Part shown: one piece after another, positions 1-35,457 of the stretch
Position numbering within the stretch: the stretch's first letter is position 1
Layout of the letters: each line of letters opens with the position of its first letter
DNA from: Eubacteriales bacterium
GTDB taxonomy: Bacteria; Bacillota; Clostridia; Oscillospirales; CAG-272
Direction: 5' to 3'
Length of the DNA stretch: 64,000 nt
NCBI GenBank assembly: GCA_045587445.1
Contig: JAZNCH010000069.1
Coordinates: 5,466 to 69,465, forward strand
Notes under the pieces: model-generated
Seen by the model: only the letters and a program-made list of their open reading frames with translations
Databases searched by the model: none
Told to the model about the DNA's origin: nothing
Position numbers and translations under genes: made by a program

Positions 1-801
1 ATACTGCCTATGTTTGCAAAATATCAGATAACGACTTTCTGTGCGCCTCCCACGATGCTTCGTATGCTTATCAAAGAAGATATTTCAAAATACGACCTTT
101 CTTCAATAAGACATATGACGACTGCGGGCGAAGCTTTGAACCCCGAGGTATATAAGCAATTTGAAAAGCTTACGGGACTTCAGATTATGGAAGGTTTTGG
201 ACAGACCGAGCTTACTTTGGCTATTGCAAACCTTATGGGCGGAACGCATAAAGTAGGCTCAATGGGTAAACCCACTCCGCTTTATGATATAGACATAGTT
301 GACGAAAACGGCAACTCCGTTGCAGATGGTGAGACAGGCGAAATCGTTGTAAGAATAAGTGAAAAAGTTCCCTGCGGACTTTTTGAAGGATATTACAGAA
401 ACGAAGAAAAGACAAAGGAAGTTATGCACGATGGCTTCTATCACACAGGCGATACCGCTTGGCGTGATGAAGACGGCTTTTTCTGGTATGTGGGCAGAGT
501 TGATGACGTTATCAAGTCTTCGGGCTATCGCATAGGTCCGTTTGAGATTGAAAGTGTTATTATGGAATTGCCTTACGTTCTCGAGTGCGGTGTATCTGCA
601 GTACCCGACGAGGTAAGAGGTCAGGTAGTTAAGGCGAGTATCGTTCTTGTTAAGGGTGTTGAACCGACAGAACAGCTTAAAAAGGATATTCAGGCATATG
701 TTAAGAAGAATACAGCACCTTATAAGTATCCCAGAATAGTTGAATTTAAGGACGAGTTACCCAAGACTATCAGTGGAAAGATTCAGAGAAATAAGCTTTA
801 A
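1..801 (+). CDS. AMP-forming acyl-CoA synthetase (medium-chain ACSM/MACS-like), C-terminal part; the 5' end lies outside the window
   Basis: The frame is open from base 1 (..[20 protein letters not shown]..). AMP-ligase C-terminal hallmarks are present: [36 protein letters not shown]. It is a close paralog of the C-terminus of 1211-3499. Confidence 0.9.
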
Positions 802-848: not shown

Positions 849-877
849 TTGACAAAATAACAAAGTTGTGATAAGAT
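849..877 (+). promoter_or_regulatory. sigma-A type promoter for the first T-box leader
   Basis: TTGACA (849-854), 17 nt spacer, TAAGAT (872-877), lying just upstream of the leader. Confidence 0.5.
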
Positions 878-883
878 ACTTAC

Positions 884-1187
884 AATATTGATAGTAAAGG
901 CTTCGACGAAGAGGGCAGAAAGTATATTTTTACCCAGAGAGACGGCGTTTTGGTGCGAGCCGTTTAAAAAGACTTTGTGTTTGTAGCTTCCGAGCCGGAA
1001 GAAAGAAAGCTTTTTGTAAAGAGAAGCAAGTAGAATCTTCCCGTAGTTGTCGCGTCAAGACATAGGAATTGTTGGATTCCGAGAGTGGCAGTTATAATTT
1101 TGACTGCAATTTGAGTGGTACCGCGGGTGTATAGGACAATCAGCACTCGTCTCAAAGTCATTAACTTTGGGATGAGTGCTTTTCTTA
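884..1187 (+). promoter_or_regulatory. T-box riboswitch leader (candidate specifier GUA, Val) with intrinsic terminator
   Basis: Stem I AG bulge AGAGAG (936-941), distal-loop GGUG (952-955), conserved T-box sequence GAGUGGUACCGCG (1113-1125), terminator hairpin AGCACUC..GAGUGCU (1142-1180) followed by a U-run. The Stem I base GGCUUCG (899-905) pairs with CGAGCC (991-996). Confidence 0.85.
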
Positions 1188-1210
1188 TCCCGGAAACGGA
1201 GAATGATTTT

Positions 1211-3499
1211 ATGCAACAGATGACAGGTCTTGACTACAAGATCAGAGAAATGGCGGGGCGTATAAAGGAGCTTCGCGAACTTGAGGCGTTAAGCCCCGAA
1301 GATATGGCGCAAAAGACCGGCGTTACGGTTGAGGAATACTTGCTTTGTGAAAAGGGAGAAAGCGACTTAAACTTTGCATTTATTTACAGATGCGCACTTG
1401 CTTTGAACGTAAACGTAACCGATATTATCGAAGGTTATTCGCCGAGACTTAAGTCTTATACTGTAACGAGAGCGGGAACGGGACAAAAGGTATCTCAGGC
1501 GCACGGTATGACGTATTTTAATATGGCGTATTCGTTTACGAACCGTATAGCAGAGCCTTTGTTTGTTAAGAGCGTATATGACGAAGAGGCACAGTCGAGG
1601 GATATTGAGCTGACGAGCCACGAGGGGCAGGAATGTGATATTATTATCGAAGGAAATCTGCTTGTTCAGATAGGTGAACACAGAGAGATACTTGGCCCCG
1701 GAGACAGTATTTATTTTAACAGTAATACTCCTCACGGTATGATTGCGGTTAACGGCAAGGACTGCTCGTTTTATGCTATAGTTCTTAATCCGACGGGTGA
1801 GCCAATACCTGAACTTACACCGTCAAAACTTATAAAGAGCAATACTGTAGTTGAAAAAGATACCAAGGACAGAATATATAAGAAGTTTATTGACGTTACC
1901 GAAAACGAAAAGGGAACGCCTACTTCAATAAATTTCAAGAATACCGATAGATTTAATTTTGCGTTTGACCTTGTTGATGAGCTGGCGGCGAAAGATCCCG
2001 ACAAGCTTGCGATGCTCCACATATCCAAGGATATGACGGAGAGAAGATTTACTTTCAAGGATATGAAACGTGCATCGGCTCAGTGTGCAAACTACTTTAA
2101 GTCGCTCGGAATTAAAAAAGGCGACAGAGTAATGCTCGTTTTGAAGAGACATTATCAGTTCTGGTTTGCGATGCTCGGCTTAAATAAGCTTGGAGCCATA
2201 GCTATTCCTGCAACAAATCAGCTTGTTGAGCACGATTTTGAATACAGATTTAACTCTGCAGGCGTTTGCGGTGTAATATGTACTGCAGACGGAGATACTG
2301 CTAATCAGATTGAAATGGCGGCAGAAAAGAGCCCGACACTCAAGCATAAGATTATTGTAAACGGCGAACGTGAGGGCTGGAGAACTTTTGACGAGGAATA
2401 TACTCTTTACAGTTCTCACTTTGACAGAAAAGAGGATTCACCTTGCGGCGACGACTTAATGCTTATGTTCTTTACATCGGGAACGTCTGGGTATCCGAAG
2501 ATTGCCGCACATAACTATAAATATGCTTTGGGTCATTTCCATACAGCAAAGTATTGGCACAACGTTGACCCCGAGGGATTGCATTTTACCATATCCGATA
2601 CCGGTTGGGCAAAATCCATGTGGGGTAAACTGTATGGTCAGTGGCTTTGCGAGGCGGCGACGTTTGTTTATGACTTTGACAGATTTAACGCGGCTGAAAT
2701 ATTGCCTATGTTTGCAAAGCACAAGATAACGACGTTCTGCGCTCCCCCCACAATGCTTCGTATGCTTATCAAAGAAGATATTTCAAAATACGATTTTTCA
2801 TCTGTAAAGCATATGACGACTGCGGGCGAGGCATTGAATCCCGAGGTTTACAAGCAGTTTGAAAAGGCAACCGGACTTCAGATAATCGAAGGTTTCGGTC
2901 AGTCCGAAAGCACTATGATTATAGGTAATATGGTAGGCGCACCGCATAAGATTGGTTCTATGGGACGCGCGACACCCGTATATGACGTTGATATAGTAGA
3001 TGCAGACGGAAATACAGTTCCCGTCGGTGAAACGGGCGAAATTGTCGTTAACGTTAAAAACGGAGCGCCCTGCGGTTTGTTTACAGGATATTACAACGAT
3101 CCCGAAAAGACAAAGGAAGTATGGCACGACGGCTTCTATCATACGGGTGACGTTGCGTGGAAGGACGAAGATGGCTTCTTCTGGTATGTGGGCAGAGTTG
3201 ACGACGTTATCAAGTCTTCGGGCTACCGCATAGGTCCGTTCGAGATAGAAAGCGTTATTATGGAATTGCCTTACGTTCTTGAGTGCGGTGTATCAGCAGC
3301 ACCCGACGAGGTAAGAGGTCAGGTTGTTAAGGCAAGTATCGTTCTTGTAAAGGGAACAGAGCCTTCAGATGAACTCAAGAGACAGATTCAGAAGTACGTA
3401 AAAGAAAAGACCGCACCATATAAGTACCCAAGAATAGTTGAATTTAAGGACGAGTTACCCAAGACGGTAAGCGGAAAGATACAAAGAAACAAACTGTGA
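1211..3499 (+). CDS. Fusion protein: XRE-type HTH + cupin domain (N-terminal ~230 aa) joined to an AMP-forming acyl-CoA synthetase (ACSM/MACS-like)
   Basis: ATG 1211 follows GGAGAA and lies downstream of the T-box terminator; the ORF-track start 1115 sits inside the leader. HTH: LSPEDMAQKTGVTVEEYLLCEKGE. Cupin: HEGQECDIIIEG..GDSIYFNSNTPHG. Ligase: [34 protein letters not shown]. Confidence 0.9.
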   Translation: MQQMTGLDYKIREMAGRIKELRELEALSPEDMAQKTGVTVEEYLLCEKGESDLNFAFIYRCALALNVNVTDIIEGYSPRLKSYTVTRAGTGQKVSQAHGMTYFNMAYSFTNRIAEPLFVKSVYDEEAQSRDIELTSHEGQECDIIIEGNLLVQIGEHREILGPGDSIYFNSNTPHGMIAVNGKDCSFYAIVLNPTGEPIPELTPSKLIKSNTVVEKDTKDRIYKKFIDVTENEKGTPTSINFKNTDRFNFAFDLVDELAAKDPDKLAMLHISKDMTERRFTFKDMKRASAQCANYFKSLGIKKGDRVMLVLKRHYQFWFAMLGLNKLGAIAIPATNQLVEHDFEYRFNSAGVCGVICTADGDTANQIEMAAEKSPTLKHKIIVNGEREGWRTFDEEYTLYSSHFDRKEDSPCGDDLMLMFFTSGTSGYPKIAAHNYKYALGHFHTAKYWHNVDPEGLHFTISDTGWAKSMWGKLYGQWLCEAATFVYDFDRFNAAEILPMFAKHKITTFCAPPTMLRMLIKEDISKYDFSSVKHMTTAGEALNPEVYKQFEKATGLQIIEGFGQSESTMIIGNMVGAPHKIGSMGRATPVYDVDIVDADGNTVPVGETGEIVVNVKNGAPCGLFTGYYNDPEKTKEVWHDGFYHTGDVAWKDEDGFFWYVGRVDDVIKSSGYRIGPFEIESVIMELPYVLECGVSAAPDEVRGQVVKASIVLVKGTEPSDELKRQIQKYVKEKTAPYKYPRIVEFKDELPKTVSGKIQRNKL

Positions 3500-3511
3500 G
3501 GTGGATTTGGA

Positions 3512-4315
3512 GTGTCAAATAAATTAAAAGTATCTTGTATCCAAATGGATATGGCTTTTGGCTCAAGCAGTGAAAACTTTGTAAAGGCAGAAGAGCTTAT
3601 ACGAAATGCCGCAAAGGACAATCCCGACGTTATTGTGTTGCCGGAGACGTGGAATACAGGCTTTTTTCCCGAAGAGTCGATAAAGGATTATTGCGACAAG
3701 GACGGAGAGAAGACGAAGAGGGTTATCGGCGGACTTGCAAAGGAATTGAACGTTAATATTGTTGCGGGAAGCGTGGCAAACGTTAAGAATGATGAAATGC
3801 ATAACACCTCTTACGTGTTTGACAGAGAGGGCAACTGTATTGCCGAATATGACAAGACACATCTTTTCTCACCAATGAAAGAGGATAAGCATTTTGCAAA
3901 GGGAAACCGTATTTGCAAATTTACCCTTGACGGAAAGAGTTGCGGTGTTATAATATGTTATGATATAAGATTTCCCGAGTTTGTCAGAACGATGACCGTA
4001 ACGGGTCTCGACTGCTTGTTTGTGGTTACCCAGTGGCCGCATGTCAGAATAGCGCACTTGAATGCGCTTGCAAAAGCAAGGGCGATTGAAAATCAGATGT
4101 TCGTTTGTTGCTGTAATAGCTGCGGCAAGGCGGGTAGAAACGTATTTTCGGGTTGTTCTCGTATATTTGACCCTTGGGGCGAAGAGATTGCGGCGACGGG
4201 CGAAACCGAGGATATTATATCGGCAGAGCTTGATTTCGGTGTTATCGAAAACATAAGAAGCACGATAAATGTGTTTGCCGACAGACGTCCCGAGCTTTAT
4301 GACGTAAAAAAATAA
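3512..4315 (+). CDS. Carbon-nitrogen hydrolase (nitrilase superfamily, omega-amidase/Nit-like)
   Basis: The E-K-C triad contexts are intact: VIVLPETWNTGF, YDKTHLF, GVIICYDIRFPE. It starts 12 nt after the ligase stop. Confidence 0.85.
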   Translation: MSNKLKVSCIQMDMAFGSSSENFVKAEELIRNAAKDNPDVIVLPETWNTGFFPEESIKDYCDKDGEKTKRVIGGLAKELNVNIVAGSVANVKNDEMHNTSYVFDREGNCIAEYDKTHLFSPMKEDKHFAKGNRICKFTLDGKSCGVIICYDIRFPEFVRTMTVTGLDCLFVVTQWPHVRIAHLNALAKARAIENQMFVCCCNSCGKAGRNVFSGCSRIFDPWGEEIAATGETEDIISAELDFGVIENIRSTINVFADRRPELYDVKK

Positions 4316-4350
4316 TTCATACGGAAAGGAGCATTAAAAGATAATAAAAA

Positions 4351-5013
4351 ATGAAAAGAGTAACGATTTTTTCGGGACATTACGGAAGCGGAAAGACCAA
4401 TCTTGCCGTAAACTATGCTTTAATGCTTCGCGAGATGGATTACGAGGTAAGCATAGCCGACCTTGATATAGTAAATCCGTACTTTCGTACCAAGGACAGC
4501 GAGGAGTTATTTTTAAAGAATAATATAGAGCTTGTGTCTCTGCCGTTTGCAAATACAAGCGTTGATTTGCCAAGTCTTCCGTCAGCGGCTTACGGTCTGT
4601 TTGACAGAAAAGACAGACAGGTTATAATTGACCTTGGAGGCGACGACAGAGGAGCGTTGGCTCTCGGGCGTTTTGTGCCGAGACTCAAAGAAGATAACGA
4701 CTATGAGATGATTTTTACGGTAAACTTTTATAGACCGCTTACTACGACGGTTGAAGAAGCGTATGAGGTTTTTAAAGAAATTGAATACGCAGCGAAGCTG
4801 AAGTTTACGAAAATAGTAAACAACTCAAATCTTGGTGAAGAAACGACAGCAGATGACGTTATAAGAACGGTTGAATTGACTGAACGGTTGGCGAAGCTGA
4901 CAAATACTGAAGTAATGTATACGGCGGTTAAAGAGTCGATTGCCGATGAAGTATCAAAGGTTATTGGAAAGAATAAGGTTTTTCGTCTGAAATTGCAGGA
5001 AAAACTGTTTTAA
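4351..5013 (+). CDS. P-loop NTPase (MinD/ParA/CooC-like ATP-binding protein) of unknown role
   Basis: Walker A GHYGSGKTN at the N-terminus and a DLGGDD Walker-B-like motif. It sits directly upstream of the oxidoreductase genes. Confidence 0.7.
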   Translation: MKRVTIFSGHYGSGKTNLAVNYALMLREMDYEVSIADLDIVNPYFRTKDSEELFLKNNIELVSLPFANTSVDLPSLPSAAYGLFDRKDRQVIIDLGGDDRGALALGRFVPRLKEDNDYEMIFTVNFYRPLTTTVEEAYEVFKEIEYAAKLKFTKIVNNSNLGEETTADDVIRTVELTERLAKLTNTEVMYTAVKESIADEVSKVIGKNKVFRLKLQEKLF

Positions 5014-5047
5014 TAAAAATAATAATATTCAGATAGGAGCAATCTAT

Positions 5048-5254
5048 ATGAAAAAAGTTAGCTTTGCGACGGATCTTTGCAAGGGTTGCGGACTTTGTGT
5101 TGACGTATGCCCCAAGAAGATTATAGTACTTGCAAAAGACAAGATTAACAAAAAGGGACATTCTCCCGCCGAGATAACGGATCAGGAAAAGTGCATAGGC
5201 TGTGCATTCTGTGCGACCATGTGCCCCGACTGCGTTATAACGGTTGAAAAGTGA
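5048..5254 (+). CDS. 2-oxoacid:ferredoxin oxidoreductase delta subunit (2x[4Fe-4S] ferredoxin)
   Basis: Two CxxCxxCxxxCP motifs (CKGCGLCVDVCP, CIGCAFCATMCP) in a 68 aa protein. Confidence 0.9.
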   Translation: MKKVSFATDLCKGCGLCVDVCPKKIIVLAKDKINKKGHSPAEITDQEKCIGCAFCATMCPDCVITVEK

Positions 5255-5264
5255 GGTGGATTTT

Positions 5265-6326
5265 GTGGCAGATAAGGTTTTGATGAAAGGTAACGAAGCA
5301 ATAGCTGAAGCGGCAATTAAGGCAGGCTGCCGTCATTACTTCGGTTATCCTATAACACCCCAGACAGAAATTGCGGCTTATATGGCAAAGAGAATGCCCA
5401 AGATAGGCGGCGTGTTTCTTCAGGCAGAAAGTGAAATTTCCGCAATTAATATGGTATACGGCGTTGCAGGCACAGGTATGCGTGTTATGACGTCATCTTC
5501 CAGCCCGGGTGTATCCCTTAAACAAGAGGGTATTTCCTACATAGCAGGTGCAGACCTGCCCGCACTTATAGTAAACGTACAGAGAGGCGGCCCCGGTCTC
5601 GGCGGTATTCAGCCTTCACAGTCAGACTATTTTCAGGCAACAAAGGGCGGCGGTCATGGCGACTACCATTTGATAGTACTTGCTCCCGCATCCGTTCAGG
5701 AAATGGCTGATATGACTATTCTTTCTTTTGACCTTGCAGAAAAATACCGTGTTCCCGCAATGCTTCTTGCAGACGGAACTATGGGTCAGATGATGGAACC
5801 GGTTGAATTGCCGGAGGTAGATTATAAGCCTACCGAAAAGGATTGGACGGTTACAGGAACACAGATGAAGAGAAAGCACAATATAGTAAACTCTCTCTAT
5901 TTGCTCCCCGAAGAACTTGAAAAGACAAATATTGAAAGATTTGAAAGATATAAGACTATCGAAGAAAACGAAGCAAGATATGAATCCTTTATGATGGAAG
6001 ATGCAGAATATTGCGTAGTTGCATTCGGTATAGCTTCCCGTGTTTCAAAGAACGCAGTAATTGCGGCAAGAAATATGGGTATTAAGGTTGGTATGATAAG
6101 ACCTATAACCCTTTGGCCGTTCCCCAAGAAGCCTTTGGCAGAAGCGGCAGAAAAGGTAAAGGGATTCCTTAGCGTTGAATTGTCTATGGGTCAGATGATT
6201 GAAGACGTAAAACTTGCGACAGAGTGCAAGAGACCCGTTGAGCTTTGCAACCGTGTCGGCGGTATGATTCCTACTCCCGAGCAGGTTCTCGAAGCTATAA
6301 AGAAAATGGCAGGAGGCGAAAGATAA
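5265..6326 (+). CDS. 2-oxoacid:ferredoxin oxidoreductase alpha subunit (VorA/KorA type)
   Basis: N-terminus ..[37 protein letters not shown] at 5265 lies 7 nt after GAGGTGG; the ORF-track start 5244 overlaps the delta gene. Confidence 0.88.
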
Positions 6327-7078
6327 TGGTAGTATTTGAAAAGCCCAAAAGCTTGACGGATGCCGAGCTTCACTATTGCCCCGGTTGCACACACGGTATT
6401 ATTCACCGCCTTGTTGCTCAGGCTATAGATGATCTTGGTATAGAAGGAAAGACCGTAGGTGTAGCACCCGTTGGTTGTGCAGTTATGGCATATAACTATT
6501 TTGCTTGTGATATGGTAGAGGCAGCACACGGACGTGCTCCCGCTGTTGCGACCGGTTTAAAGAGAGCGATGCCTGAAAACGTTATTTTCACATATCAGGG
6601 AGACGGCGATTTGGCTTCAATCGGTATGGCAGAGACTGTACACGCAGCGACAAGAAATGAAAATATTACCGTAATTTTCGTAAATAATGCGATATATGGT
6701 ATGACGGGCGGACAGATGGCTCCTACCTCTCTTCCCGGTCAGGTAACACAGACTTCTCCTTACGGCAGAGACGTTTCGACAGCAGGTTATCCTGTAAAGG
6801 TAAGCGAAATGCTTTCTACTCTTGACGGTCCCGAATTTATTGCAAGAGTTGCGGTAAATAACGTTAAGAACGTAAAGGAAGCACAGAAAGTTATTAAGAA
6901 GGCATTTGAAAATCAGATAAACAAAAAAGGATTTTCGCTTGTTGAGGTTGTATCATCTTGTCCTACAAACTGGGGTATGACACCTGTTGACGCACTCAAG
7001 TGGGTTGACGAAAAGATGATTCCTTATTATCCTCTCGGCGTATATAAGGACAGAAGCGCAACAAAGGAGGCTGAATAA
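6326..7078 (+). CDS. 2-oxoacid:ferredoxin oxidoreductase beta subunit (TPP-binding)
   Basis: The ATG overlaps the alpha-subunit stop (TAATG). Motifs: [24 protein letters not shown].. and the TPP motif [20 protein letters not shown]. Confidence 0.9.
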
Positions 7079-7080
7079 TT

Positions 7081-7614
7081 ATGACAACAAATACACTTAT
7101 AGCAGGATTTGGCGGTCAGGGCGTTCTTTTTGCGGGTAAGTTTATGGCATACAAGGGAATGCTTGAGGGTAAAGAGATAAGTTGGTTGCCTTCATACGGC
7201 CCCGAAATGAGAGGCGGTACTGCAAACTGTAGCGTAATACTCAGCGACGAACCGATTGGTTCTCCCATTGTATCGAATCCCGACGTTCTTATTGCTATGA
7301 ACCTTCCCTCACTTGATAAGTATGAGAATACGGTTGTACCGGGTGGTATGATTTTTGTTGATTCGACCCTCATCGAAAGAAGGGTTGAGAGAACAGACGT
7401 CAAGGTGTTCTACATACCGACGACAAAACTTGCTCAGGAGATAGGTGCTCCTACGTTGGCAAATATGATAATGATGGGTAAGTTTATAAAAGAAGCCGGA
7501 GCCGTAACACACGACAATATGGAAGCCGCTTTGAAGAAAGTAGTTTCAGCCAAAAGAGCAGATATGCTTGAGATTAACCTTAAGGCAATTGATACAGGCT
7601 ACAATTTTGAATAA
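7081..7614 (+). CDS. 2-oxoacid:ferredoxin oxidoreductase gamma subunit
   Basis: [25 protein letters not shown], typical of the POR/VOR/KOR gamma family. It starts 2 nt after the beta-subunit stop. Confidence 0.9.
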
Positions 7615-7625
7615 AGATAAAGAAA

Positions 7626-7656
7626 AAGTACGGGTTTCTCCCGTGCTTTTTCTTTA
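7626..7656 (+). terminator. Rho-independent terminator ending the ligase/oxidoreductase operon
   Basis: Hairpin GUACGGG-uuuc-CCCGUGC followed by UUUUUCUUU. Confidence 0.75.
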
Positions 7657-7671
7657 TTCGACACAATATAT

Positions 7672-7700
7672 TGACAAAATGTTAATAAAGTGTTATGATT
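7672..7700 (+). promoter_or_regulatory. sigma-A type promoter
   Basis: TTGACA (7672-7677), 17 nt spacer, TATGAT (7695-7700), upstream of the 7735 gene. Confidence 0.5.
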
Positions 7701-7734
7701 AATATATAAATATATAAATAGGAGGGTTTATATT

Positions 7735-8292
7735 ATGCCACCAGGAATACAAAGTGCAATGATACTAATGTCTTTAGGAGCTATAGCATCACTAATTGTA
7801 ACTATAGTTTTGTGTTTGACTGTAGTACCGGACAAAAAGCGTGATTCTCTCAAGGGATTTGGAAGATTTTTGAACGATTTGTTTAACTTCAGAGGCTTGT
7901 TGATTGAAGCTATTGTAAAGACGCTTTACGTTTTGATAACGGTAACTTTTGTTGTGGGCGGCTTCTTTATGCTCTTTATAGTTAACACACAGGAGAACTT
8001 TTTCACCGGCGAAACATCAACTGTATGGTACGGCTGGGTAGGTCTTATTGCAATGATAGTAGGACCTATTGCTACACGTCTTGTATTTGAAGGAATGATG
8101 CTCTTTATTCTTTTGGTTAAGAACACTATTCAAATAAATAACAAACTGAAAGACCAATACAGAACTGACGAATGTCCCAAGAAAGATAAGAAGGCTCAAA
8201 AACAGGCACCTATCGCTCAGGTTCCCACAGCTCCCGCACAGCCAACACAGCCTACACAGGCGGAACAAGCTCCGACTGACCCGCAAGTATAA
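7735..8292 (+). CDS. Small membrane protein (DUF4282-like) with a Pro/Gln/Ala-rich C-terminal tail
   Basis: Three to four hydrophobic helices and a low-complexity tail QAPIAQVPTAPAQPTQPTQAEQAPTDPQ. RBS AGGAGGG lies upstream. Confidence 0.6.
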   Translation: MPPGIQSAMILMSLGAIASLIVTIVLCLTVVPDKKRDSLKGFGRFLNDLFNFRGLLIEAIVKTLYVLITVTFVVGGFFMLFIVNTQENFFTGETSTVWYGWVGLIAMIVGPIATRLVFEGMMLFILLVKNTIQINNKLKDQYRTDECPKKDKKAQKQAPIAQVPTAPAQPTQPTQAEQAPTDPQV

Positions 8293-8400
8293 ATTAGACA
8301 AATACACTAAAAGACAGTTTCTTGTAAACTGTCTTTTTTGTTGACAAAATGCTACAAAAATGATACTATAAAAATAGGACGGAAAAGGAGGCTTTGTTTT

Positions 8401-9888
8401 ATGAAAAAGTTTTTAACCCTTATAAGTGTAGTATTATGTTTTGTACTTATGTTTGCCCTTGTTTCTTGCAAGAATGAACCAGATGACAAAACTAATGAAA
8501 CCGTAAAAGAAACAGAGAATGAGACGGTTGAAGAAACCAAAGTTGAAGAAAAGCCGAAAGAACCTACTTCTGCAAAAGAGGTTTGGGCTCTCGTTGATAA
8601 GGCTATGGAAAATGCCGAATCTTATGAAGCCGATATGACCGCTTATATGGTTATGTTTATAAATGGCTTTAAAATAGAAAGCAAGGTTTCCGGTTTTGAA
8701 ATAAGTATAGGTCAAAGGGATGCACTTGATTATTACTATTACCGTTTCTTGAAAAATGAAGCTTCGTGTGATGCGATTTCGCTCAATGAAACCTCTACCG
8801 AGATTGAGGCATATAACGAGGGAATGACTTTTGTTTCGAAACTGAGCAGTGAAGCTGAGCAGAATTTTTGCTCAAAAATGACTGTCGATGAATATTTGGA
8901 ATTTAGGAGCAGTGTTCTCAGCGATGATTTTGACTTTGCTGATTGTACCAAGAGTGAGTTCTTGAAAAATGAAGACGGTAGTTGGAGTTTATCTTTTTCC
9001 GGATATACCAAAAAGGCTGTCAATACTTTTTTGAAGGACATCGGAGCAGATGAAACTCAATTAGGTTCAGACGTTATAGATATGAAGATTTCTTTAACCG
9101 CTAACGGTGAGTATCTTGTAAACGAAATGGTGTTTGAACTTGTTTTTGACGTAGAAGAAACAGATACCTCAATTCCTGTTTTCAAGGAAGTAATGAAGTA
9201 TTCAAAATACGGCGAAGCAAAGAAGACTCTTGAGGGTATTGAGCCGTCTGAATATACTGAAGTTGATGATATTACTGTTCTTGGCAAGGTAACCGATGCA
9301 ATAAAAGAATTTGCCGGTTTGTCTGAGGGCTCGTTTGACCTTGATATAACTCAGAACTTAAAGGTTGGAGCTGAATCTAATAAGTACACTGAAAAGGATT
9401 ATGTGTTTTTTGGTAAGATTAACGGTGGCTTTGTTTATACCTTGGATTCTATGATAAATGGCGTAACGGCTATGAATATGGATTATAGAAACGGAGTTCA
9501 GAAGATTACGCAAGGCACTGATACCGAAACCTATAATTTATCCGAGTCTGAAGCAAAAGAAATAGTTTATCGGCTTATTAATACTGCAGCTTATGATGAA
9601 TCTTCCGTAACCGATATTGAAAAACTAAGCGAAGGCGTTTATAAGTTTACTGTAGATGCACCCGACCTTTCCGCTTATGAAGAGTCGTTAGCTCCTATGG
9701 GGATAGTTTGCAAATCCGGAAAACAGAGCATAGTGGTTACTTTTGCAGATGATAAGCTTTCAAAAATTGAAAGCGATTTGACTGTATACGGTGAAATGAC
9801 CGTAGGTAACAAAACTGAAGCTATGGAACTGAATCAGCTTACTACTGTTACGGTAAAAGCCGTTAACGGTTCAGGCACTAATATGTAA
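8401..9888 (+). CDS. Lipoprotein of unknown function
   Basis: MKKFLTLISVVLCFVLMFALVSC contains a lipobox (LVSC). ATG 8401 is preferred over the ORF-track start 8338, which lacks a signal-peptide context. Confidence 0.7.
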   Translation: MKKFLTLISVVLCFVLMFALVSCKNEPDDKTNETVKETENETVEETKVEEKPKEPTSAKEVWALVDKAMENAESYEADMTAYMVMFINGFKIESKVSGFEISIGQRDALDYYYYRFLKNEASCDAISLNETSTEIEAYNEGMTFVSKLSSEAEQNFCSKMTVDEYLEFRSSVLSDDFDFADCTKSEFLKNEDGSWSLSFSGYTKKAVNTFLKDIGADETQLGSDVIDMKISLTANGEYLVNEMVFELVFDVEETDTSIPVFKEVMKYSKYGEAKKTLEGIEPSEYTEVDDITVLGKVTDAIKEFAGLSEGSFDLDITQNLKVGAESNKYTEKDYVFFGKINGGFVYTLDSMINGVTAMNMDYRNGVQKITQGTDTETYNLSESEAKEIVYRLINTAAYDESSVTDIEKLSEGVYKFTVDAPDLSAYEESLAPMGIVCKSGKQSIVVTFADDKLSKIESDLTVYGEMTVGNKTEAMELNQLTTVTVKAVNGSGTNM

Positions 9889-12550: not shown

Positions 12551-12575
12551 TACATAAATCTATATGGAGGTAAAT

Positions 12576-14678
12576 ATGGAGATTTTAGAAAACTTATTGC
12601 CGTTTATTACATTGGCAATTGCTTTAGCAGCTTTGCTTTTCGCATTGTTTACTGCAAAGAAGATAGTTAAGTTCCCGGAGGGAACAGACAAAATGAAAGA
12701 AATATCAAAATGGATAAGACAAGGTGCAAATGCATACCTGAAACGCCAATATAAAGTCGTTGGTATATTTTTTGTATGTATGTTTGTTGTACTTGTTGTA
12801 ATGGCGGCATTGGGATTACTTACATGGTTTGTGCCTTTTGCGTTTGTAACAGGTGGATTCTTCTCAGCTCTTTCCGGTTTTGTTGGAATGAAGATTGCAA
12901 CATTGTCAAACAGCAGAACGGCAAATGCTTGCAGAGAAAGTCTCAACAAAGGCTTGCGTGTGGCATTTTCAGCAGGTTCCGTTATGGGCTTTACAGTAGT
13001 AGGTCTGGGACTGCTTGATATATCGGTTTGGTTTATTCTTCTCAAGTTCGTATTTAAGCTTGAGGCTTCTGATATAGCAAGCGCAATGCTGACGTTTGGT
13101 ATGGGTGCATCTTCTATGGCTTTGTTTGCCAGAGTTGGCGGTGGTATCTTTACTAAAGCGGCAGACGTTGGTGCTGACCTTGTTGGTAAGGTAGAAGCAG
13201 GTATTCCTGAAGACGACCCCAGAAACCCTGCTGTTATTTCGGATAATGTTGGTGATAACGTTGGTGACGTTGCAGGTATGGGTGCTGACCTTTATGAATC
13301 TTATGTTGGTTCTATTATATCTTCAATGGCTCTCGGTGTTACAGCATTTGGTTCTATAAAAGCTATGGCTCTTCCGTTAATTTTGGCAGGATTGGGTATT
13401 ATTGCTTCGATTCTTGGTACATTTCTTGTCAGAACAGGCGAAAATACAGAACAATCTGTGCTTTTGAAGGCACTTAGTCGTGGAACGAATTTTAGTGCGA
13501 TTTTGATTGCCATTCTTGCAATTCCGGTTACATATCTTATACTTGGCGCAGAAAACCTTAAATTCTGTGTTCCGATACTTGCAGGACTTTTGGCTGGTGT
13601 GCTTATTGGTAAGGCTACTGAATATTTTACATCAGATACATATAAACCTACTAAAAAGTTGGCTGAGTCAAGTTCTACGGGTTCGGCTACAATAATTATT
13701 GAGGGCATAAGCCTTGGTATGCTTTCTACGGTTATACCGATTGTAATTATTGGAGTATGTATACTTGTTTCGTATTTTGTATGCGGTGGCGCAAAGCTTC
13801 CTGCTAACGGTCTTTACGGCATTGCTCTTGCGGCAGTAGGTATGCTTTCAACTCTTGGTATTACACTTGCTACAGATGCATACGGTCCCGTAGCAGATAA
13901 TGCAGGTGGTATTGCACAGATGGCAGGTCTTGAAGAAGACGTTCGTAAAAAGACTGACGCTCTTGACTCTCTCGGTAATACAACAGCGGCAACAGGTAAA
14001 GGTTTTGCTATAGGTTCTGCAGCGTTGACAGCTTTGGCTCTCGTTGCTTCATATATTGATAAGATTAAAGAGGTTGCACTTAAAGCCGGAGAAGAAATTG
14101 TTTCAAACTTTGACATAATGGACCCCAGAGTATTGGTTGGTTTGTTTGTAGGCGCGTGCTTGCCTTTCTTGTTTGCGGCTTTGACTATGAGCTCTGTTGG
14201 TAAGGCTGCTCAGTCTGTAGTTATTGAAGTTCGCCGTCAGTTCAAGGAAATTAAAGGCCTTATGGACGGTAACGGAACACCCGACTATGAATCATGTGTA
14301 GACCTTTGTACACGTTCCAGTCTCAGAGAAATGATTCTTCCTACCATTGTTGCGATAGTAGTTCCGTTGATTGTTGGTATAGTACTTGGTTATCAGGGCG
14401 TTGTAGGTATGCTTGCAGGAGCAACCGCAACAGGATTTTTACTTGCGATATTTATGTCGAACTCCGGTGGTACTTGGGATAACGCTAAGAAGTATATTGA
14501 AAACGGCGGAGCAGGTGGCGGCAAGGGCAGTGACGAGCATAAAGCGGCTGTTGTTGGCGACACGGTAGGGGACCCATTCAAAGATACTTCCGGTCCTTCC
14601 ATAAACATTCTTATTAAGCTTCTTTCAATGGTTTCCATTGTATTTGCAGCTTTGGTATTTAAGTTCCATATTCTTTAA
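12576..14678 (+). CDS. hppA: Membrane-integral K+-dependent-type pyrophosphate-energised cation pump (H+/Na+-PPase)
   Basis: Signatures [17 protein letters not shown] and [32 protein letters not shown] carries Ala rather than Lys, which marks the K+-dependent class. ATG 12576 follows GGAGG. Confidence 0.95.
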
Positions 14679-22315: not shown

Positions 22316-22580
22316 TATTAAAAATGCAATGAAGGAATTATTCCCATTTATACTTCACTTCAGAGAGCTGTCGGTTGGTGTAAGACAGTGTGAAAGCATC
22401 TGGGGAGTCTCGTTCCTGAGCAGAACCGCAGAAAATAATATGAGTAAGCGGTTACGGATTGTCCCGTTATCATGGCAGAAGGCTTGTTAGAGTCTTATTG
22501 AGTTGACCGTTTTTACGGTAAACAGGGTGGTACCGCGATAACTTCGTCCCTGAAGTCAAAATTGACTTCGGGTTTTTTTA
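22316..22580 (+). promoter_or_regulatory. T-box riboswitch leader (candidate specifier CUC, Leu) with intrinsic terminator
   Basis: AGAGAG (22362-22367), distal loop GGUUGGUG (22373-22380), AGGGUGGUACCGCG (22524-22537), terminator CCCUGAAGUC-aaaauu-GACUUCGGG plus U7 (22548-22580). Confidence 0.88.
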
Positions 22581-22629: not shown

Positions 22630-24012
22630 ATGAAACAAATTAAAATTGCAGACAAGACGCTTTGCAGAAATGACAAAGCATTCAGCTTCAAAGAAAGACT
22701 TGAAATAGTAAGACAGCTCGAAAAGCTAAAGGTTGACGTAATAGAGCTTCCCGAAATTGCAAATGTAAGAACTGACATTCTTCTTGTGCGTACGGCATCG
22801 TCTTTTGTAAAAAACAGTGTTATATCCGTTGCGGCGGGAAGTAACGCACAGTCGATAGATGATGCGGCGGCGGCTTTGAGTGTTGCAAAAAAAGGAAGAA
22901 TACGTATAGAAGTACCCACATCGGCTGTCGGTATGGAATACTTTATGCACAAAAAGCCCGAAAAGATGAAAGAGTGGGTAAAGAACGCTGTAGAAAAGGC
23001 GGTATCCCTTTGCTCCGACGTTGAATTTTGTGCTTTTGATGCAACAAGAGCAGAACCCGAATTTCTAATTGAGCTTATAAAAATTGCAGTAAATGCAGGC
23101 GCAAAAACCGTTTCCGTATGCGACAGCGCGGCGGGAAAGATGCCTGACGACTTTGCAAAGTTTGGCAAAAAAATAGCCGAGGAAGCCGGTGTTGACGTTG
23201 GTGTTGACTGTTCAAACAAGAATGGGCTTGCATCAGCCGAGGCTATTATGGCTGTGAGAGAGGGCGTTTCAGTTGTTAAAACGTCAATAGGGGGAGACTG
23301 TGTTCCCTTTAAGGCTTTTGCGAGTATGATAAAGAACTGCGGAGATAATTACGGTTTCACGGCAGGAATAAGCTATACCGAAATGCACCGCATATTAAGT
23401 CAGGTAGGTTGGATATGCTCCGAGAAAAAGGCGGAAAAGAATGTTTCTGTATCTTCTGTTGAAGAAAGCGGTATAAGACTTGATGCAAAAGACGATATAA
23501 ATGCGGTAGCGGCTGCCGTAGCAAAGCTCGGATATGACCTTTCCGACGAAGATAACAAACGTGTACACGAGGAAGTATGCCGCGTTGCAGAAAAGAGAAG
23601 CGTGGGTGCAAAAGAGCTTGATGCAATCGTAGCAACGGTTGCTTTGCAGGTGCCCGATTCATACAGACTTGAAAATTACGTTATAAACAACGGAAATATA
23701 ATCAGTGCAAGTGCACAGATAACCCTCAGCAGAGAGGGTAAAATGTTACAGGGAATTGCAATCGGAGACGGACCTATTGACGCGGCTTTCGTAGCTATTG
23801 AGCAAATTATCGGTCATCGCTATGAGCTTGACGATTTCCAGATTCAGTCTATTACCGAGGGCAAGGAAGCCGTAGGCTCGGCACTTGTTAAGCTTCGTTT
23901 TGACGGTAAGCTTTATTCGGGCAACGGTATTTCCACCGACATTATAGGTGCAAGTATCAGAGCGTATATAAGCGCGGTAAACAAGATTGTTTACGAGGAA
24001 CACAGTATTTGA
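22630..24012 (+). CDS. 2-isopropylmalate/citramalate synthase homolog (HMGL-like TIM barrel + LeuA dimerisation/regulatory domain) lacking the catalytic motifs
   Basis: It is collinear with LeuA. However, DTTLRDGEQ is replaced by ADKTLCRNDK, and the HxH metal site (V-H-C-H-NDLG) by V-D-C-S-NKNG. The C-terminal LeuA_dimer-like region is well preserved (GDGPIDAAFVAIEQI..GASIRAYISAVNKI). Confidence 0.8.
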   Translation: MKQIKIADKTLCRNDKAFSFKERLEIVRQLEKLKVDVIELPEIANVRTDILLVRTASSFVKNSVISVAAGSNAQSIDDAAAALSVAKKGRIRIEVPTSAVGMEYFMHKKPEKMKEWVKNAVEKAVSLCSDVEFCAFDATRAEPEFLIELIKIAVNAGAKTVSVCDSAAGKMPDDFAKFGKKIAEEAGVDVGVDCSNKNGLASAEAIMAVREGVSVVKTSIGGDCVPFKAFASMIKNCGDNYGFTAGISYTEMHRILSQVGWICSEKKAEKNVSVSSVEESGIRLDAKDDINAVAAAVAKLGYDLSDEDNKRVHEEVCRVAEKRSVGAKELDAIVATVALQVPDSYRLENYVINNGNIISASAQITLSREGKMLQGIAIGDGPIDAAFVAIEQIIGHRYELDDFQIQSITEGKEAVGSALVKLRFDGKLYSGNGISTDIIGASIRAYISAVNKIVYEEHSI

Positions 24013-24030: not shown

Positions 24031-26529
24031 ATGAAGCTTTCGTTTTCAACAAAGGGTTGGCACAACAGAACCTTTAATGATTTTTGTGAAATAGCCGAAT
24101 CTCTGAAATTCAAGGGGATCGAGCTTCACAATATAAATAACCGTCTTTTTACCGACAGAGACGGAGCTTTTCACGATTATTCTGCGGCATCGACATTGCG
24201 CAGTCTCTATGACAAAAAGCTTTCTATACCTTGCATTGATATAGTAAGTGATATTTCGGTTGAATCCGAAGTCGAAGAAGCAAGAAAAGAAATTGCAAGA
24301 TGCTTTGAAATAGCACAGTTTTTGCATATTCCATATATCCGTTTGAAATCGCGTACGGAAAATGCTGACGGAATTAGCGTTGCCGAGAACTTTTTAAAAG
24401 AAGTCTTACCTGAGGCAGAGGAACGCGGCATTGTACTTTTGCTTGAAACTTCGGGTCTCTTCCGCAATACTGCCGTTTTGCGTACGACTCTTGAAGGGTT
24501 CGCTTCCGACAGTCTTGGTGCATTGTGGAATTTGTCTGAGGCATATACCGAAGAAAAGAATGCCGAAATTATAATAAAGAATCTCGGAGCATACATCAAA
24601 CACGTACATTATAACGATATAACTTTTGAAAACGGCGACAAAGAATACTGTCTTGCCGGAGAGGGCGAACTGCCTATAAAAGATATTATGAACGCTTTGA
24701 GAAGCGTTAACTACGACGGCTTTATATCGCTCGTATGGGACCCTACGTGGTGCGAAGAGATAGACGATATGGAAATTATCTTTGCACAGTTCAGCCACTA
24801 TATGAAGCAGTTTTCCGATACCTCAAAAGGAGACAAGAATTTTTACTACAACAGAGTGCATACAGGCCGTTTTAGTTGGAAAAAGGACGACCTTATCGAC
24901 CTTACGTTTTCACAAGTTCTTGACAGACTTGTTGAAGATTTCCCCGACCAGTACGCTTTCAAATATACCACGCTTGACTATACGAGAACGTACAGCGAAT
25001 TCAGAGATGACGTTGACACATTTGCGAGAGCACTTATTTCCCTCGGTGTTAAAGCGGGCGACAAGGTTGCTGCTTGGGCCTCCAACGTGCCTCAATGGTT
25101 TATTGCGTTTTGGGCAACCGTAAAAATAGGTGCAGTGCTTGTTACCGTAAATACCGCATACAAGATTCACGAGGCTGAATATTTGCTTCGTCAGTCAGAT
25201 ACACATACGCTTATTATGACAGAGGGCTCAAAGGATTCGAGCTACGGACAGATAGTAGCAGAGCTTTGTCCCGAGCTTGAAACGACAAAGGCAGGTAAAC
25301 CGCTTCACAGCAAGAAGCTTCCTTTCTTGCGTAACGTTATTACTGTCGGGTTTACACAAAGGGGCTGTATGACGTGGAATGATGCTTTAAAGAGAGCAGA
25401 CGAAGTTCCCGTTGAAGAAGTTTACAGAATGGCGGCGCAGGTAGACAAAGACGACGTATGCAATATGCAGTATACTTCGGGAACAACGGGTTTCCCCAAG
25501 GGTGTTATGCTTACACATTATAACGTTGTAAACAATGGTAAGTATATCGGCGACCACATGGATTTGTCGACAGCCGACAGAATGATGATTCAGGTGCCTA
25601 TGTTCCATTGCTTCGGCATGGTGCTTTCTATGACGGCGTCTATGACTCACGGAACGACAATGTATCCGTTGCCATATTTCTCACCTAAACCCGCGTTGGC
25701 GTGTGTTCACAACGAGCATATAACCGCATTTAACGGAGTTCCTACAATGTTTATCGCTATGATGGAGCATCCCGACTTTGAAAAGACCGATTTTTCATAT
25801 ATGAGAATAGGTATTATGGCGGGTTCAAACTGCCCTGCGGACCTTATGAAAAAGGCTACGGAAATTATGAATATGAAAGAAATTGTATCTGTTTACGGAC
25901 AGACAGAGGCATCGCCCGGCTGTACTATGAGCAGTTATTACGACTCTCTTGAAGTAAGAACGGAAACTGTAGGCTCTGCATTTGCTAACGTTGAATGTAA
26001 GATAATTAACCCCGATACAGGCGAAGAGTGTGCTGACGGAGAAAACGGCGAGTTCGTCGCAAGGGGATATAATGTTATGAAGGGTTACTACAAGATGCCG
26101 GGAGCGACAGCGTCGGCTATTGATGCTGATGGTTGGTTGCATACGGGCGACCTTGCGTGCCGCACCCCCGATGGTAACTACAGAATAACGGGTAGACTGA
26201 AAGATATGATAATCCGTGGCGGTGAAAATATTTACCCCAAGGAAATTGAGGAATTTATCTACACCTGTCCTAAAGTAAGCGACGTTCAGGTTATCGGTGT
26301 TCCCGACGAGAAATACGGCGAGGAAATTATGGCTTGTATTATACTCAAAGAGGGAGAAACAATGACCGAGGACGAGATGAAGAAATATATCGCCGACCAT
26401 ATGGCAAGACATAAGGTGCCGAGATATATTGATTTCGTTGATTCGTTCCCCATGAACGCGGCAGGAAAGATACAGAAATACAAGATGCGTGAAAACGCTG
26501 TTGAAAAGTTGGGGCTTAAGAAAGAGTAA
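24031..26529 (+). CDS. Fusion protein: xylose-isomerase-like TIM barrel (sugar phosphate isomerase/epimerase family) + AMP-forming acyl-CoA ligase (FadD-like)
   Basis: The N-terminal ~260 aa reads MKLSFSTKGWHNRTF..GIELHN..LLLETSG..HVHYND.. The remainder is a ligase: YTSGTTGFPKGVMLTH, YGQTE, GWLHTGD, RLKDMIIRGGENIYPKEIE, AGKIQK. Confidence 0.88.
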   Translation: MKLSFSTKGWHNRTFNDFCEIAESLKFKGIELHNINNRLFTDRDGAFHDYSAASTLRSLYDKKLSIPCIDIVSDISVESEVEEARKEIARCFEIAQFLHIPYIRLKSRTENADGISVAENFLKEVLPEAEERGIVLLLETSGLFRNTAVLRTTLEGFASDSLGALWNLSEAYTEEKNAEIIIKNLGAYIKHVHYNDITFENGDKEYCLAGEGELPIKDIMNALRSVNYDGFISLVWDPTWCEEIDDMEIIFAQFSHYMKQFSDTSKGDKNFYYNRVHTGRFSWKKDDLIDLTFSQVLDRLVEDFPDQYAFKYTTLDYTRTYSEFRDDVDTFARALISLGVKAGDKVAAWASNVPQWFIAFWATVKIGAVLVTVNTAYKIHEAEYLLRQSDTHTLIMTEGSKDSSYGQIVAELCPELETTKAGKPLHSKKLPFLRNVITVGFTQRGCMTWNDALKRADEVPVEEVYRMAAQVDKDDVCNMQYTSGTTGFPKGVMLTHYNVVNNGKYIGDHMDLSTADRMMIQVPMFHCFGMVLSMTASMTHGTTMYPLPYFSPKPALACVHNEHITAFNGVPTMFIAMMEHPDFEKTDFSYMRIGIMAGSNCPADLMKKATEIMNMKEIVSVYGQTEASPGCTMSSYYDSLEVRTETVGSAFANVECKIINPDTGEECADGENGEFVARGYNVMKGYYKMPGATASAIDADGWLHTGDLACRTPDGNYRITGRLKDMIIRGGENIYPKEIEEFIYTCPKVSDVQVIGVPDEKYGEEIMACIILKEGETMTEDEMKKYIADHMARHKVPRYIDFVDSFPMNAAGKIQKYKMRENAVEKLGLKKE

Positions 26530-26534
26530 GGAAT

Positions 26535-27347
26535 ATGCTTGATAACAAATATTACGTAATAGACGCACATTGCCATATATATCCCGAGAAAATAGCGGCG
26601 AGGGCGGTAGCGGGAACCGACGGTTTCTACGGAGAACATTCTTTTGGAGACGGAACGGTAAGCGGTTTGCTCGAAGTGGGGGACAAAGCCGGTATAGACC
26701 ACTATATTGTGCAGTCGGTGGCGACAACACCCCATCAAGTGAAGAGTATTAACGAGTTTATTGCAGAAAGCGTGAAAAACGGAAACGGTAGATTTACAGG
26801 ACTCGGTACCCTTCACCCTGATACCGAAGACCTTGACGGAGACATTAAACACCTTATGGAAATGGGGCTTAAAGGAGTAAAGCTGCACCCCGATATACAG
26901 CGTTTTAAAATAGACGATTACAGATGCCTTAAGATATATGAAAAATGCGAAGAATTTGGGTTGCCTATATTGATGCATACGGGCGACCACAGATACGATT
27001 TTTCAAATCCTAACAGACTTTTTCCGGTTATGGAGATATATACGGGATTAACCGTTATCGGTGCTCACCTTGGCGGTTGGTCTATTTGGGAAGAGGCGGC
27101 GAAAAAGCTGTCTGGATTACCTAATCTGTATGTCGATTGCTCGTCAAGCCTATATGCTATGAGCAGTGAAACAGCCAAAAGGATAATCTATACTTACGGC
27201 GTTGATAAAGTTCTTTTTGGAACGGATTATCCTATGTGGGACCCTAAAGCAGAGCTTGAAAGATTCTTTAATATAGGATTGACCGAAGAGGAAAACAGAA
27301 AGATCTTGTCGGGAAACGCCGAAAAACTATTTGGTATTAAGAGATAA
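26535..27347 (+). CDS. Amidohydrolase-2 family metal-dependent hydrolase (TIM barrel)
   Basis: VIDAHCHIYPEKIA.., HTGDH.., FGTDYPMW. It starts 5 nt after the preceding gene. Confidence 0.8.
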   Translation: MLDNKYYVIDAHCHIYPEKIAARAVAGTDGFYGEHSFGDGTVSGLLEVGDKAGIDHYIVQSVATTPHQVKSINEFIAESVKNGNGRFTGLGTLHPDTEDLDGDIKHLMEMGLKGVKLHPDIQRFKIDDYRCLKIYEKCEEFGLPILMHTGDHRYDFSNPNRLFPVMEIYTGLTVIGAHLGGWSIWEEAAKKLSGLPNLYVDCSSSLYAMSSETAKRIIYTYGVDKVLFGTDYPMWDPKAELERFFNIGLTEEENRKILSGNAEKLFGIKR

Positions 27348-32530: not shown

Positions 32531-32559
32531 AGTTTTTATCTCCTTTTTAGATTTTATAT

Positions 32560-32712: not shown

Positions 32713-32714
32713 TC

Positions 32715-34076: not shown

Positions 34077-34107
34077 TTATAATACTTCCTTTCTTATATA
34101 GGATAAC

Positions 34108-35418: not shown

Positions 35419-35457
35419 AAGTTTTTACCTCCAAAATATTTTATATGTTAATTAATT

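Follow-up and report, generated by a model that had tools for sequence, protein, structure and literature searches.

The stretch of DNA analysed here (hereafter the window) comprises 64,000 nt of contig JAZNCH010000069.1 from an Eubacteriales bacterium, and carries near its start an operon preceded by a T-box leader RNA with a valine specifier codon. Seven genes follow the leader on the plus strand, with intergenic gaps of 12, 35, 34, 10, -1 and 2 nt, and encode an acyl-CoA ligase fused to a helix-turn-helix (HTH) and a cupin domain, a Nit-like carbon-nitrogen hydrolase, a P-loop NTPase and the four subunits of a 2-oxoacid:ferredoxin oxidoreductase (OFOR). A preliminary description of this DNA, made from its letters, had given the seven genes, their gaps, their domain content and the terminator closing the operon, all of which were recovered unchanged. 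The features of the operon are the following.

849-877 (+), sigma-A-type promoter, TTGACA, 17-nt spacer and TAAGAT, with TG ahead of the -10 hexamer (motif scan)
894-1157 (+), T-box leader RNA with Stem I (about 900-995), a Stem II region, Stem III and the antiterminator (RF00230)
936-955 (+), distal platform of Stem I, AGAGAG at 936-941 and the distal-loop GGUG at 952-955 (sequence, covariance model)
983-986 (+), specifier triplet GUA (Val) at 983-985 followed by the purine G986 (covariance-model alignment)
1112-1154 (+), antiterminator with the T-box sequence, bulge UGGUACC at 1116-1122 (covariance-model alignment)
1142-1187 (+), intrinsic terminator of the leader, a 17-bp stem at 1142-1180 followed by UUUUCUU (terminator scan, folding)
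1211-3499 (+), HTH-cupin-ligase fusion of 762 aa, proposed isobutyrate-CoA ligase (Pfam HTH_3, Cupin_2, AMP-binding, AMP-binding_C)
3512-4315 (+), carbon-nitrogen hydrolase, putatively of the Nit2/omega-amidase branch, accessory (Pfam CN_hydrolase, complete domain)
4351-5013 (+), divergent SIMIBI-class P-loop NTPase of 220 aa, Walker A GHYGSGKT (weak ParA/CbiA Pfam matches, N-terminus only)
5048-5254 (+), OFOR delta, 68 aa, ferredoxin-like with two [4Fe-4S] motifs (Pfam, NCBIfam)
5265-6326 (+), OFOR alpha, VorB-type, GTG start (Pfam POR_N, PFOR_II)
6326-7078 (+), OFOR beta, thiamine diphosphate-binding, its start overlapping the alpha stop by 1 nt (Pfam TPP_enzyme_C)
7081-7614 (+), OFOR gamma (Pfam POR)
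7616-7658 (+), operon-end terminator, a 19-bp hairpin between A- and U-runs, bidirectional in form (folding)

The leader RNA and its specifier codon

Related loci (L numbers) were collected from a species-level genome collection with the ligase as anchor, keeping the best 80 of 594 candidate stretches that encode a relative of it. The fusion ligase is full-length in these 80 loci, with 77-98% identity, and L001 is a same-species copy whose ligase is 98% identical to that of the window. All the related genomes are metagenome-assembled genomes from gut samples (ruminant, other herbivore and human), and the carriers are uncultured Acutalibacteraceae/Oscillospiraceae-type Clostridia. The leader alignment comprises the window and the 80 orthologous leaders (n = 81); one additional contig, L081, was fetched independently of the 80 loci. 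For gene order, 56 loci offer enough sequence downstream and 67 can be evaluated for a paralogous ligase upstream.

The element in front of the operon is a T-box. A permissive scan of positions 800-1260 with the Rfam T-box model RF00230 gave a full-length match (model positions 1-219) at 894-1157, with an E value of 5.4e-20 and 88.4 bits, which is below the gathering score of 93 bits. Two orthologous leaders score above that cut-off (L008, 101.6 bits; L081, 96.2 bits), and the copy in L001 reaches 88.3 bits. The T-box core AGUGGUACCGCG does not vary among the 80 loci and stands upstream of the ligase gene, 79-185 nt away from it in 79 loci and 379 nt away in L020. The preliminary description had identified the element as a T-box leader bearing the hallmarks of the class, and this identification holds together with its details, as AGAGAG, GGUG, GAGUGGUACCGCG at 1113-1125, the promoter and the competing terminator all occupy the positions it had given. 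In most orthologous loci, a TTGACA and extended -10 promoter is found in the equivalent place, directly past the stop codon of the upstream ligase.

The structure of the leader is well conserved across the aligned sequences. In the distal platform, the AGAGA and the G-UG of GGUG are invariant in 80 aligned leaders, and the second G is at least 90% conserved. Thirteen pairs of Stem I were tested in 80 leaders: 96.2% of the cells are paired, 9 of the 13 pairs have changed on both sides, and the covariation score was reached by none of 500 shuffles, while 3' partners slid out of register pair in just 22-44% of the cells. The antiterminator bulge is UGGU in every locus. In the window, this UGGU (1116-1119) would pair with an ACCA 3' end, which predicts a tRNA with discriminator base A; tRNA-Val fits this prediction, although that base is not specific to it. 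The 3' strand of the antiterminator (1146-1154) sits inside the 5' arm of the terminator (1142-1158), and the two structures are therefore mutually exclusive. Folding of positions 1095-1195 gave a z-score of -4.9.

The specifier is a valine codon, and this point is settled as far as sequence analysis permits. The triplet and the base that follows it read GUA-G in 73 of the 81 leaders, GUA-A in five and GUC-A in three, so that the reading of GUA as a Val specifier proposed earlier is borne out by 78 GUA and three GUC leaders as well as by the covariance model. Ahead of the triplet the bases differ among the leaders, and the base after it is always a purine. The preliminary description had also drawn the pairing that closes the specifier loop as one continuous helix, GGCUUCG with CUUCCGAGCC; this part has to be revised, since the covariance model pairs GAAG (908-911) with CUUC (987-990) and a separate base helix joins GC (900-901) to GC (994-995), leaving the position of the specifier unaffected. 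The closing helix (alignment columns 15-18 with 97-100) is 100% paired, with three of its four pairs alternating between A-U and G-C. A shifted register, UGU-A, which would specify Cys, was rejected, since it would leave the three GUC-A variants with a pyrimidine where a purine belongs, and since the frame is set by the closing helix.

The operon, its relatives and the neighbouring T-box units

The first gene of the operon encodes a 762-aa protein composed of an XRE-type HTH (residues 17-77), a cupin domain (132-190) and an AMP-forming ligase (about 222-762). Both ligase domains are complete, PF00501 matching over profile positions 3-384 of 384 (212 bits) and PF13193 over 1-76 of 76 (72.8 bits). 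Its best NCBIfam family is MbcS, the branched-acid ligase of Staphylococcus aureus, with 437.7 bits against a cut-off of 850 for the equivalog model (NF047394), and the protein is thus not an MbcS equivalog. The best solved relative of the ligase domain is MacsMa of Methanosarcina acetivorans (3ETC), with 623 bits over residues 222-760 and a runner-up at 349 bits; the favoured substrate of MacsMa is 2-methylbutyrate (PMC10455477). The HTH-cupin module could add a ligand-dependent second layer of control or an allosteric feedback. A 7-mer count and visual inspection around the Val and Ile promoters returned only the promoter hexamers and no conserved palindrome that could serve as an operator for the HTH. 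Another fusion of this kind is encoded in L070 (8446-9885, minus strand), where an XRE-type HTH is joined to the alpha and beta domains of a serine dehydratase, and HTH-metabolic enzyme fusions seem to recur in this lineage.

The four-subunit OFOR architecture is complete, with delta, alpha, beta and gamma contiguous and each matched by Pfam. The alpha subunit scores 562.8 bits with the VorB model NF005507 (cut-off 399), the next families following at 334 and 254 bits, under their own cut-offs; VorB is a subfamily model, and its name does not prove a substrate. The nearest solved relatives of alpha are the 2-keto acid:ferredoxin oxidoreductase alpha subunit of Pyrococcus furiosus (1yd7) and then a 2-oxoglutarate synthase. 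The hairpin that ends the operon has a folding energy of -26.5 kcal/mol and a z-score of -8.8.

The gene order ligase, P-loop NTPase, delta, alpha, beta and gamma was found in 52 of the 56 evaluable loci. The P-loop gene always lies between the ligase and the OFOR genes, for which reason we regard it as a core gene, whereas the Nit gene is limited to five of the 80 loci, those of the closest relatives (L001, L002, L003, L062 and L069). The preliminary description had placed both genes in the operon without distinction, and only the P-loop gene keeps this standing beyond the closest relatives. Nit as a core step of the pathway was rejected, because 75 of the 80 loci are without it. The best NCBIfam match of the Nit protein is the PRK10438 amidohydrolase (120.5 bits, under its cut-off of 249), and its PDB matches are, in order, 3p8k, mouse Nit2 (2w1v) and yeast YLR351C (1f89). 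Were it an omega-amidase, a glutamine-dependent transamination could be driven forward by its action, which we offer as speculation.

The P-loop protein is more difficult to place. PDB sequence and profile searches match its Walker A region only, to MinD/Mrp-type families, and in public annotations it appears as hypothetical, MinD/ParA-family or P-loop NTPase. A confident AlphaFold2 model of pLDDT (predicted local distance difference test) 83 returned generic SIMIBI NTPases as fold matches (SRP GTPases, ATPase-type HypB, MinD and MipZ), at template modelling (TM) scores of 0.5-0.6. No conserved cysteine was found across 71 orthologues, and a role as a NifH-like, ATP-driven donor of low-potential electrons was rejected on this ground and because the folds match generic SIMIBI NTPases only. 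By analogy with SIMIBI proteins, the NTPase may aid the assembly or maturation of the OFOR.

Seven of the 80 loci (L003, L025, L059, L066, L069, L071 and L074) have an additional gene, about 1.1 kb long, behind the ligase (or Nit) and ahead of the P-loop gene. Its product has 354-366 aa and the N-terminal motif ...KLGF[GA]..FTDHMF...GWHD. The L066 protein passes two IlvE equivalog models, with 512.6 bits (NF009897, cut-off 307) and 429.4 bits (cut-off 250). Gene order is the same on the independently fetched contig L081, where the start of the P-loop gene is overlapped by a gene with a Pfam Aminotran_4 match. The name aminotransferase is therefore given to L066 by model score, to L081 by Aminotran_4, and to the other six by size and N-terminal motif. 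The operon under the Val T-box thus seems to hold genes for the complete three-step conversion of acid to amino acid in these eight relatives.

The valine operon is one of several T-box units at this locus. The features of the other two are the following.

1-801 (+), 3' part of a paralogous HTH-cupin-ligase gene that begins before the window, proposed 2-methylbutyrate-CoA ligase (Pfam, NCBIfam)
22320-22554 (+), second T-box of the window, with CUC (Leu) followed by G in the specifier slot (Rfam, 128 bits)
22630-24012 (+), LeuA-like protein with HMGL-like and LeuA_dimer domains (Pfam, NCBIfam, motif check)
24031-26529 (+), fusion of 832 aa joining a xylose-isomerase-like TIM barrel (AP_endonuc_2) to an AMP-binding ligase of another subfamily
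26535-27347 (+), Amidohydro_2 protein behind the Leu T-box (Pfam)

The upstream paralog is found full-length in relatives, with 61-72% identity, in 57 of the 67 evaluable loci. There it has its own promoter and its own T-box, scoring 95.6-99.9 bits with RF00230, and the specifier of this T-box is AUC (Ile) without exception (58 of 58 leaders). Eight loci (L047, L049, L054, L055, L060, L067, L068 and L076) bear one more T-box core motif a short way upstream of the Ile unit, on the minus strand at about 2430-2740, which points to a fourth T-box-controlled gene, divergent from the locus, in some species.

The Leu T-box is the only one reported in the window at the Rfam gathering threshold, and about 15 kb of other genes separate it from the Val operon. 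A Leu T-box with a LeuA-like gene follows OFOR gamma in 20 of 22 loci inspected, and in the other two the contig ends first; the specifiers of these 22 leaders, read by eye, are mostly CUC, with CUG in L004, L013 and L030. Isopropylmalate synthases carry a DTTLRDGEQ motif and an H-x-H metal site; the LeuA-like protein has DKTLCRND in the place of the former and no H-x-H motif, and is probably an inactive synthase homologue that retains the leucine-binding regulatory domain. The ligase of the 832-aa fusion is PRK12583-like (671 bits, under the cut-off). In L081, an equivalent TIM-barrel-ligase fusion (817 aa) adjoins the Ile and Val ligases.

The order of the whole locus is thus Ile T-box and ligase 1; Val T-box, ligase 2, IlvE where present, NTPase and OFOR; Leu T-box, LeuA-like gene, ligase 3 and amidohydrolase. 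This linkage of Val, Ile and Leu T-boxes is kept across more than 50 species-level genomes. Three branched-chain amino-acid T-boxes, each placed before its own acid-CoA ligase, are hard to explain unless the three branched-chain acids are the substrates.

Other genes of the window lie outside these units. The operon is followed by two genes (7671-9888, plus strand; 185 and 516 aa) that are preceded by a strong promoter of their own, TTGACA-17-TATGAT with TG, and whose products match no Pfam family; the 185-aa gene is kept beside the operon in the closest relatives only. A membrane H+-translocating pyrophosphatase (12564-14678, plus strand; 912 bits) may matter here, as the three nearby AMP-forming ligases release pyrophosphate. 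On the minus strand, positions 30047-36222 hold a 2-oxoacid dehydrogenase complex (fused E1 alpha-beta of 827 aa, E3 of 453 aa and E2 of 436 aa) adjoined by a DeoR-type regulator, which could be the oxidative counterpart for 2-oxoacids. A tRNA gene at 51496-51568 (plus strand; 65.9 bits), with the anticodon UUU (Lys) from the alignment, is unrelated to the T-boxes.

Proposed route and competing explanations

We consider it likely that this leader is a transcription-attenuating T-box specific for tRNA-Val and that it gates an operon salvaging isobutyrate into valine. As long as tRNA-Val is charged, the leader would fold the terminator at 1142-1187 and transcription would halt. When it is uncharged, pairing of its anticodon to GUA (983-985) and of its free ACCA end to UGGU (1116-1119) would let the antiterminator form, and RNA polymerase would read through into the operon. 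The ligase domain of the 762-aa protein would then convert isobutyrate to isobutyryl-CoA, which the VorB-type OFOR, with CO2 and reduced ferredoxin, would carboxylate to 2-oxoisovalerate. A branched-chain aminotransferase, encoded in the operon of some relatives and presumably elsewhere in this genome, would complete the route to valine.

The carboxylating direction is suggested by three observations taken together: a T-box induces when valine is short, the ligase is an ATP-consuming, activating enzyme, and an aminotransferase is present in some of the operons. AMP-forming ligases run in the activating direction, which fits the assimilation of an acid rather than the breakdown of an amino acid. 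An acid-to-amino-acid route had been proposed in the preliminary description, and the MacsMa/MbcS-like ligase, the VorB-type alpha subunit, the aminotransferase in the operon of relatives and the Ile and Leu T-boxes all argue for it.

Several observations weigh against this interpretation. The window leader lies 4.6 bits under the RF00230 gathering score and was missed by the whole-window scan at that threshold, and its specifier loop is without the usual AGUA/GAA letters of the S-turn. The operon in the window has no aminotransferase and covers only the ligase and OFOR steps. Four of the 56 evaluable loci (L040, L050, L063 and L070) have the Val T-box and the fusion ligase with no OFOR nearby, and are also without the upstream paralog ligase and the downstream P-loop gene. 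In the two of these loci inspected, the ligase is followed by unrelated housekeeping genes, UDG and PolA in L040 and those of a serine dehydratase and a Mur ligase in L070, and no alternative partner enzyme was found there. The beta, gamma and delta subunits fall under every NCBIfam cut-off, their best matches being generic or of the 2-oxoglutarate type. Because only alpha passes a curated model and its solved relatives are mixed, the substrate specificity of the OFOR should not be taken from sequence alone, and its assignment as a 2-oxoisovalerate:ferredoxin oxidoreductase (VOR) leans on alpha and on the genomic context.

A further difficulty is that the OFOR stands behind the Val T-box alone, so that its supply when only isoleucine or leucine is limiting is not accounted for. 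The terminator scan gave no terminator-like site on the plus strand in the interval from the ligase 1 stop (801) to the Val promoter (849), and with the OFOR behind the Val T-box, Ile-induced transcripts would therefore stop at the Val leader unless tRNA-Val were uncharged as well. Basal read-through, another OFOR elsewhere, or a routine co-limitation for the three amino acids are possible ways in which the OFOR could be supplied under Ile or Leu limitation.

Among the alternatives, the one that survives best, which we nevertheless regard as unlikely, is that the ligase makes isobutyryl-CoA from external isobutyrate as a primer for the branched-chain fatty acids of membrane lipids, in the manner of MbcS in S. 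aureus, while the OFOR works oxidatively from 2-oxoisovalerate to isobutyryl-CoA, the T-box turning this salvage on when valine-derived primers are scarce. Two reports describe MbcS, the best NCBIfam family of the ligase, as supporting branched-chain fatty acid synthesis from carboxylic acid precursors (PMC10026030, PMC11167679). The acyl-CoA made by the ligase could supply both routes and OFORs are in general reversible, but an OFOR oxidising 2-oxoisovalerate while tRNA-Val is uncharged would use up the valine precursor, and would render the co-transcribed ligase redundant. T-boxes, moreover, sense the charging of tRNA and not the state of the membrane, and a branched-chain aminotransferase in the T-box operon of eight relatives suits amino-acid synthesis. 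The oxidative direction could also be covered by the separate E1/E2/E3 2-oxoacid dehydrogenase complex at 30047-35418.

Rather less probable again is an OFOR of broad specificity, or of the 2-oxoglutarate or pyruvate type, in an operon with a general role (glutamate as amino donor, or redox balance) to which the Val T-box would be one input among others. The best matches of delta (OGOR delta) and beta (2-oxoglutarate OFOR beta), both under cut-off, and the 2-oxoglutarate synthase that comes second among the solved relatives of alpha are what speaks for it. Against them stand the alpha subunit, which passes the VorB cut-off only, the partners in the operon (a branched-acid-type ligase and, in relatives, IlvE) and the conserved linkage of the three T-boxes.

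That the 762-aa protein is mainly a transcription factor, with its ligase-like domain as a sensor and the T-box controlling a regulator, is very improbable. In its favour, the fusion with its N-terminal XRE-type HTH and cupin is conserved over the full length, and bifunctional enzyme-repressors such as BirA exist. Against it, the AMP-binding and AMP-binding_C domains are complete and find a match in MacsMa, which is an active enzyme; the 7-mer count and visual inspection of the regions ahead of the Val and Ile leaders showed no conserved palindromic operator; and the tight operon linkage to OFOR and IlvE suits catalysis.

Beyond the salvage of isobutyrate into valine, the locus as a whole allows a broader interpretation, which we advance tentatively and rate at slightly less than an even chance. 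Ile, Val and Leu T-boxes would each switch on their own ligase throughout the lineage, the ligases being coupled to ligand-sensor modules, namely the HTH-cupin in the Ile and Val ligases and, for Leu, the dead LeuA homologue with its leucine-binding domain. The three channels would share one VOR, a dedicated and novel SIMIBI NTPase as its accessory factor, and one IlvE. Such a system would be the genetic basis of the isoacid requirement or stimulation of fibre-degrading gut bacteria, and would represent the first T-box-governed salvage of amino acids from fermentation acids.

Some sixty years of ruminant nutrition have established that cellulolytic gut bacteria need, or gain from, isobutyrate, 2-methylbutyrate and isovalerate; to our knowledge, the genes and the control of isoacid carboxylation have not been defined in these bacteria. 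The locus offers a gene-level candidate for this pathway, long known from rumen physiology, and makes a sixty-year-old question testable with named genes: three ligases labelled by their T-box specifiers, one VorB-type OFOR, an aminotransferase in some relatives and a conserved NTPase. Dozens of species-level genomes from the guts of livestock and humans share the set. It would add the salvage of fermentation acids to a T-box regulon of synthetases, de novo synthesis and transport, and the combination of T-box specifier and ligase would provide a sequence marker to predict isoacid use in uncultured gut bacteria, with a bearing on feed supplementation and on models of gut cross-feeding.

Comparison with known systems

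T-boxes are well known on the branched-chain genes of Firmicutes, such as the Leu T-box of the ilv-leu operon of Bacillus subtilis and those of valS and ileS. The leaders described here belong to the same RF00230 family and share Stem I, the specifier loop, the AGAGA/GGUG platform, the UGGN bulge and the competing terminator, as well as the logic in which an uncharged tRNA stabilises the antiterminator and the supply of the amino acid is restored. In contrast to these T-boxes, which govern a synthetase, a de novo pathway or a transporter, the one in the window precedes an acid-activating ligase and a ferredoxin-dependent 2-oxoacid oxidoreductase, and three leaders (Ile, Val and Leu) occur in one locus, each before its own ligase.

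The proposed chemistry, from acid to acyl-CoA, 2-oxoacid and amino acid, is that of the isoacid route of rumen anaerobes, which, according to the work of Allison and co-workers in the 1960s-80s, reportedly carboxylate isobutyrate, 2-methylbutyrate and isovalerate reductively to Val, Ile and Leu; the rumen and hindgut habitat is also the same. The four subunits are also those of the VOR (EC 1.2.7.7) known from methanogens and Thermococcales, and the alpha subunit encoded here belongs to the VorB subfamily. The differences lie in the arrangement, a single operon with a dedicated ligase, IlvE in relatives and tRNA-sensing control, and in the hosts, which are uncultured Clostridia rather than classical isolates or archaea.

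Regarding the ligase, both MacsMa and MbcS are without the N-terminal HTH-cupin module of about 220 residues that the window protein adds. MbcS serves lipid synthesis, and we know of no T-box control of it.

A route from arylacetates to aromatic amino acids has been proposed for methanogens and anaerobes, based on indolepyruvate:ferredoxin oxidoreductase (IOR) and PaaK-like aryl-acid CoA ligases. It has the same design as the system proposed here, an ATP-dependent acid-CoA ligase with an OFOR run in the carboxylating direction, but with another OFOR subfamily (the IOR alpha model gives 80 bits here), another ligase family and other substrates. No T-box control of the IOR/PaaK route is known to us.

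A full-text literature search, whose coverage left out most subscription journals, returned no description of this arrangement and no link of a T-box to these genes; large T-box catalogues may list these leaders without comment. The components are of kinds already known, the T-box RNA itself being ordinary, and isoacid carboxylation, VOR and MacsMa/MbcS-type ligases having been described. What is new compared with these systems is their combination: a tRNA-sensing switch placed on acid salvage, three amino-acid channels, ligases fused to sensor domains and a conserved NTPase.

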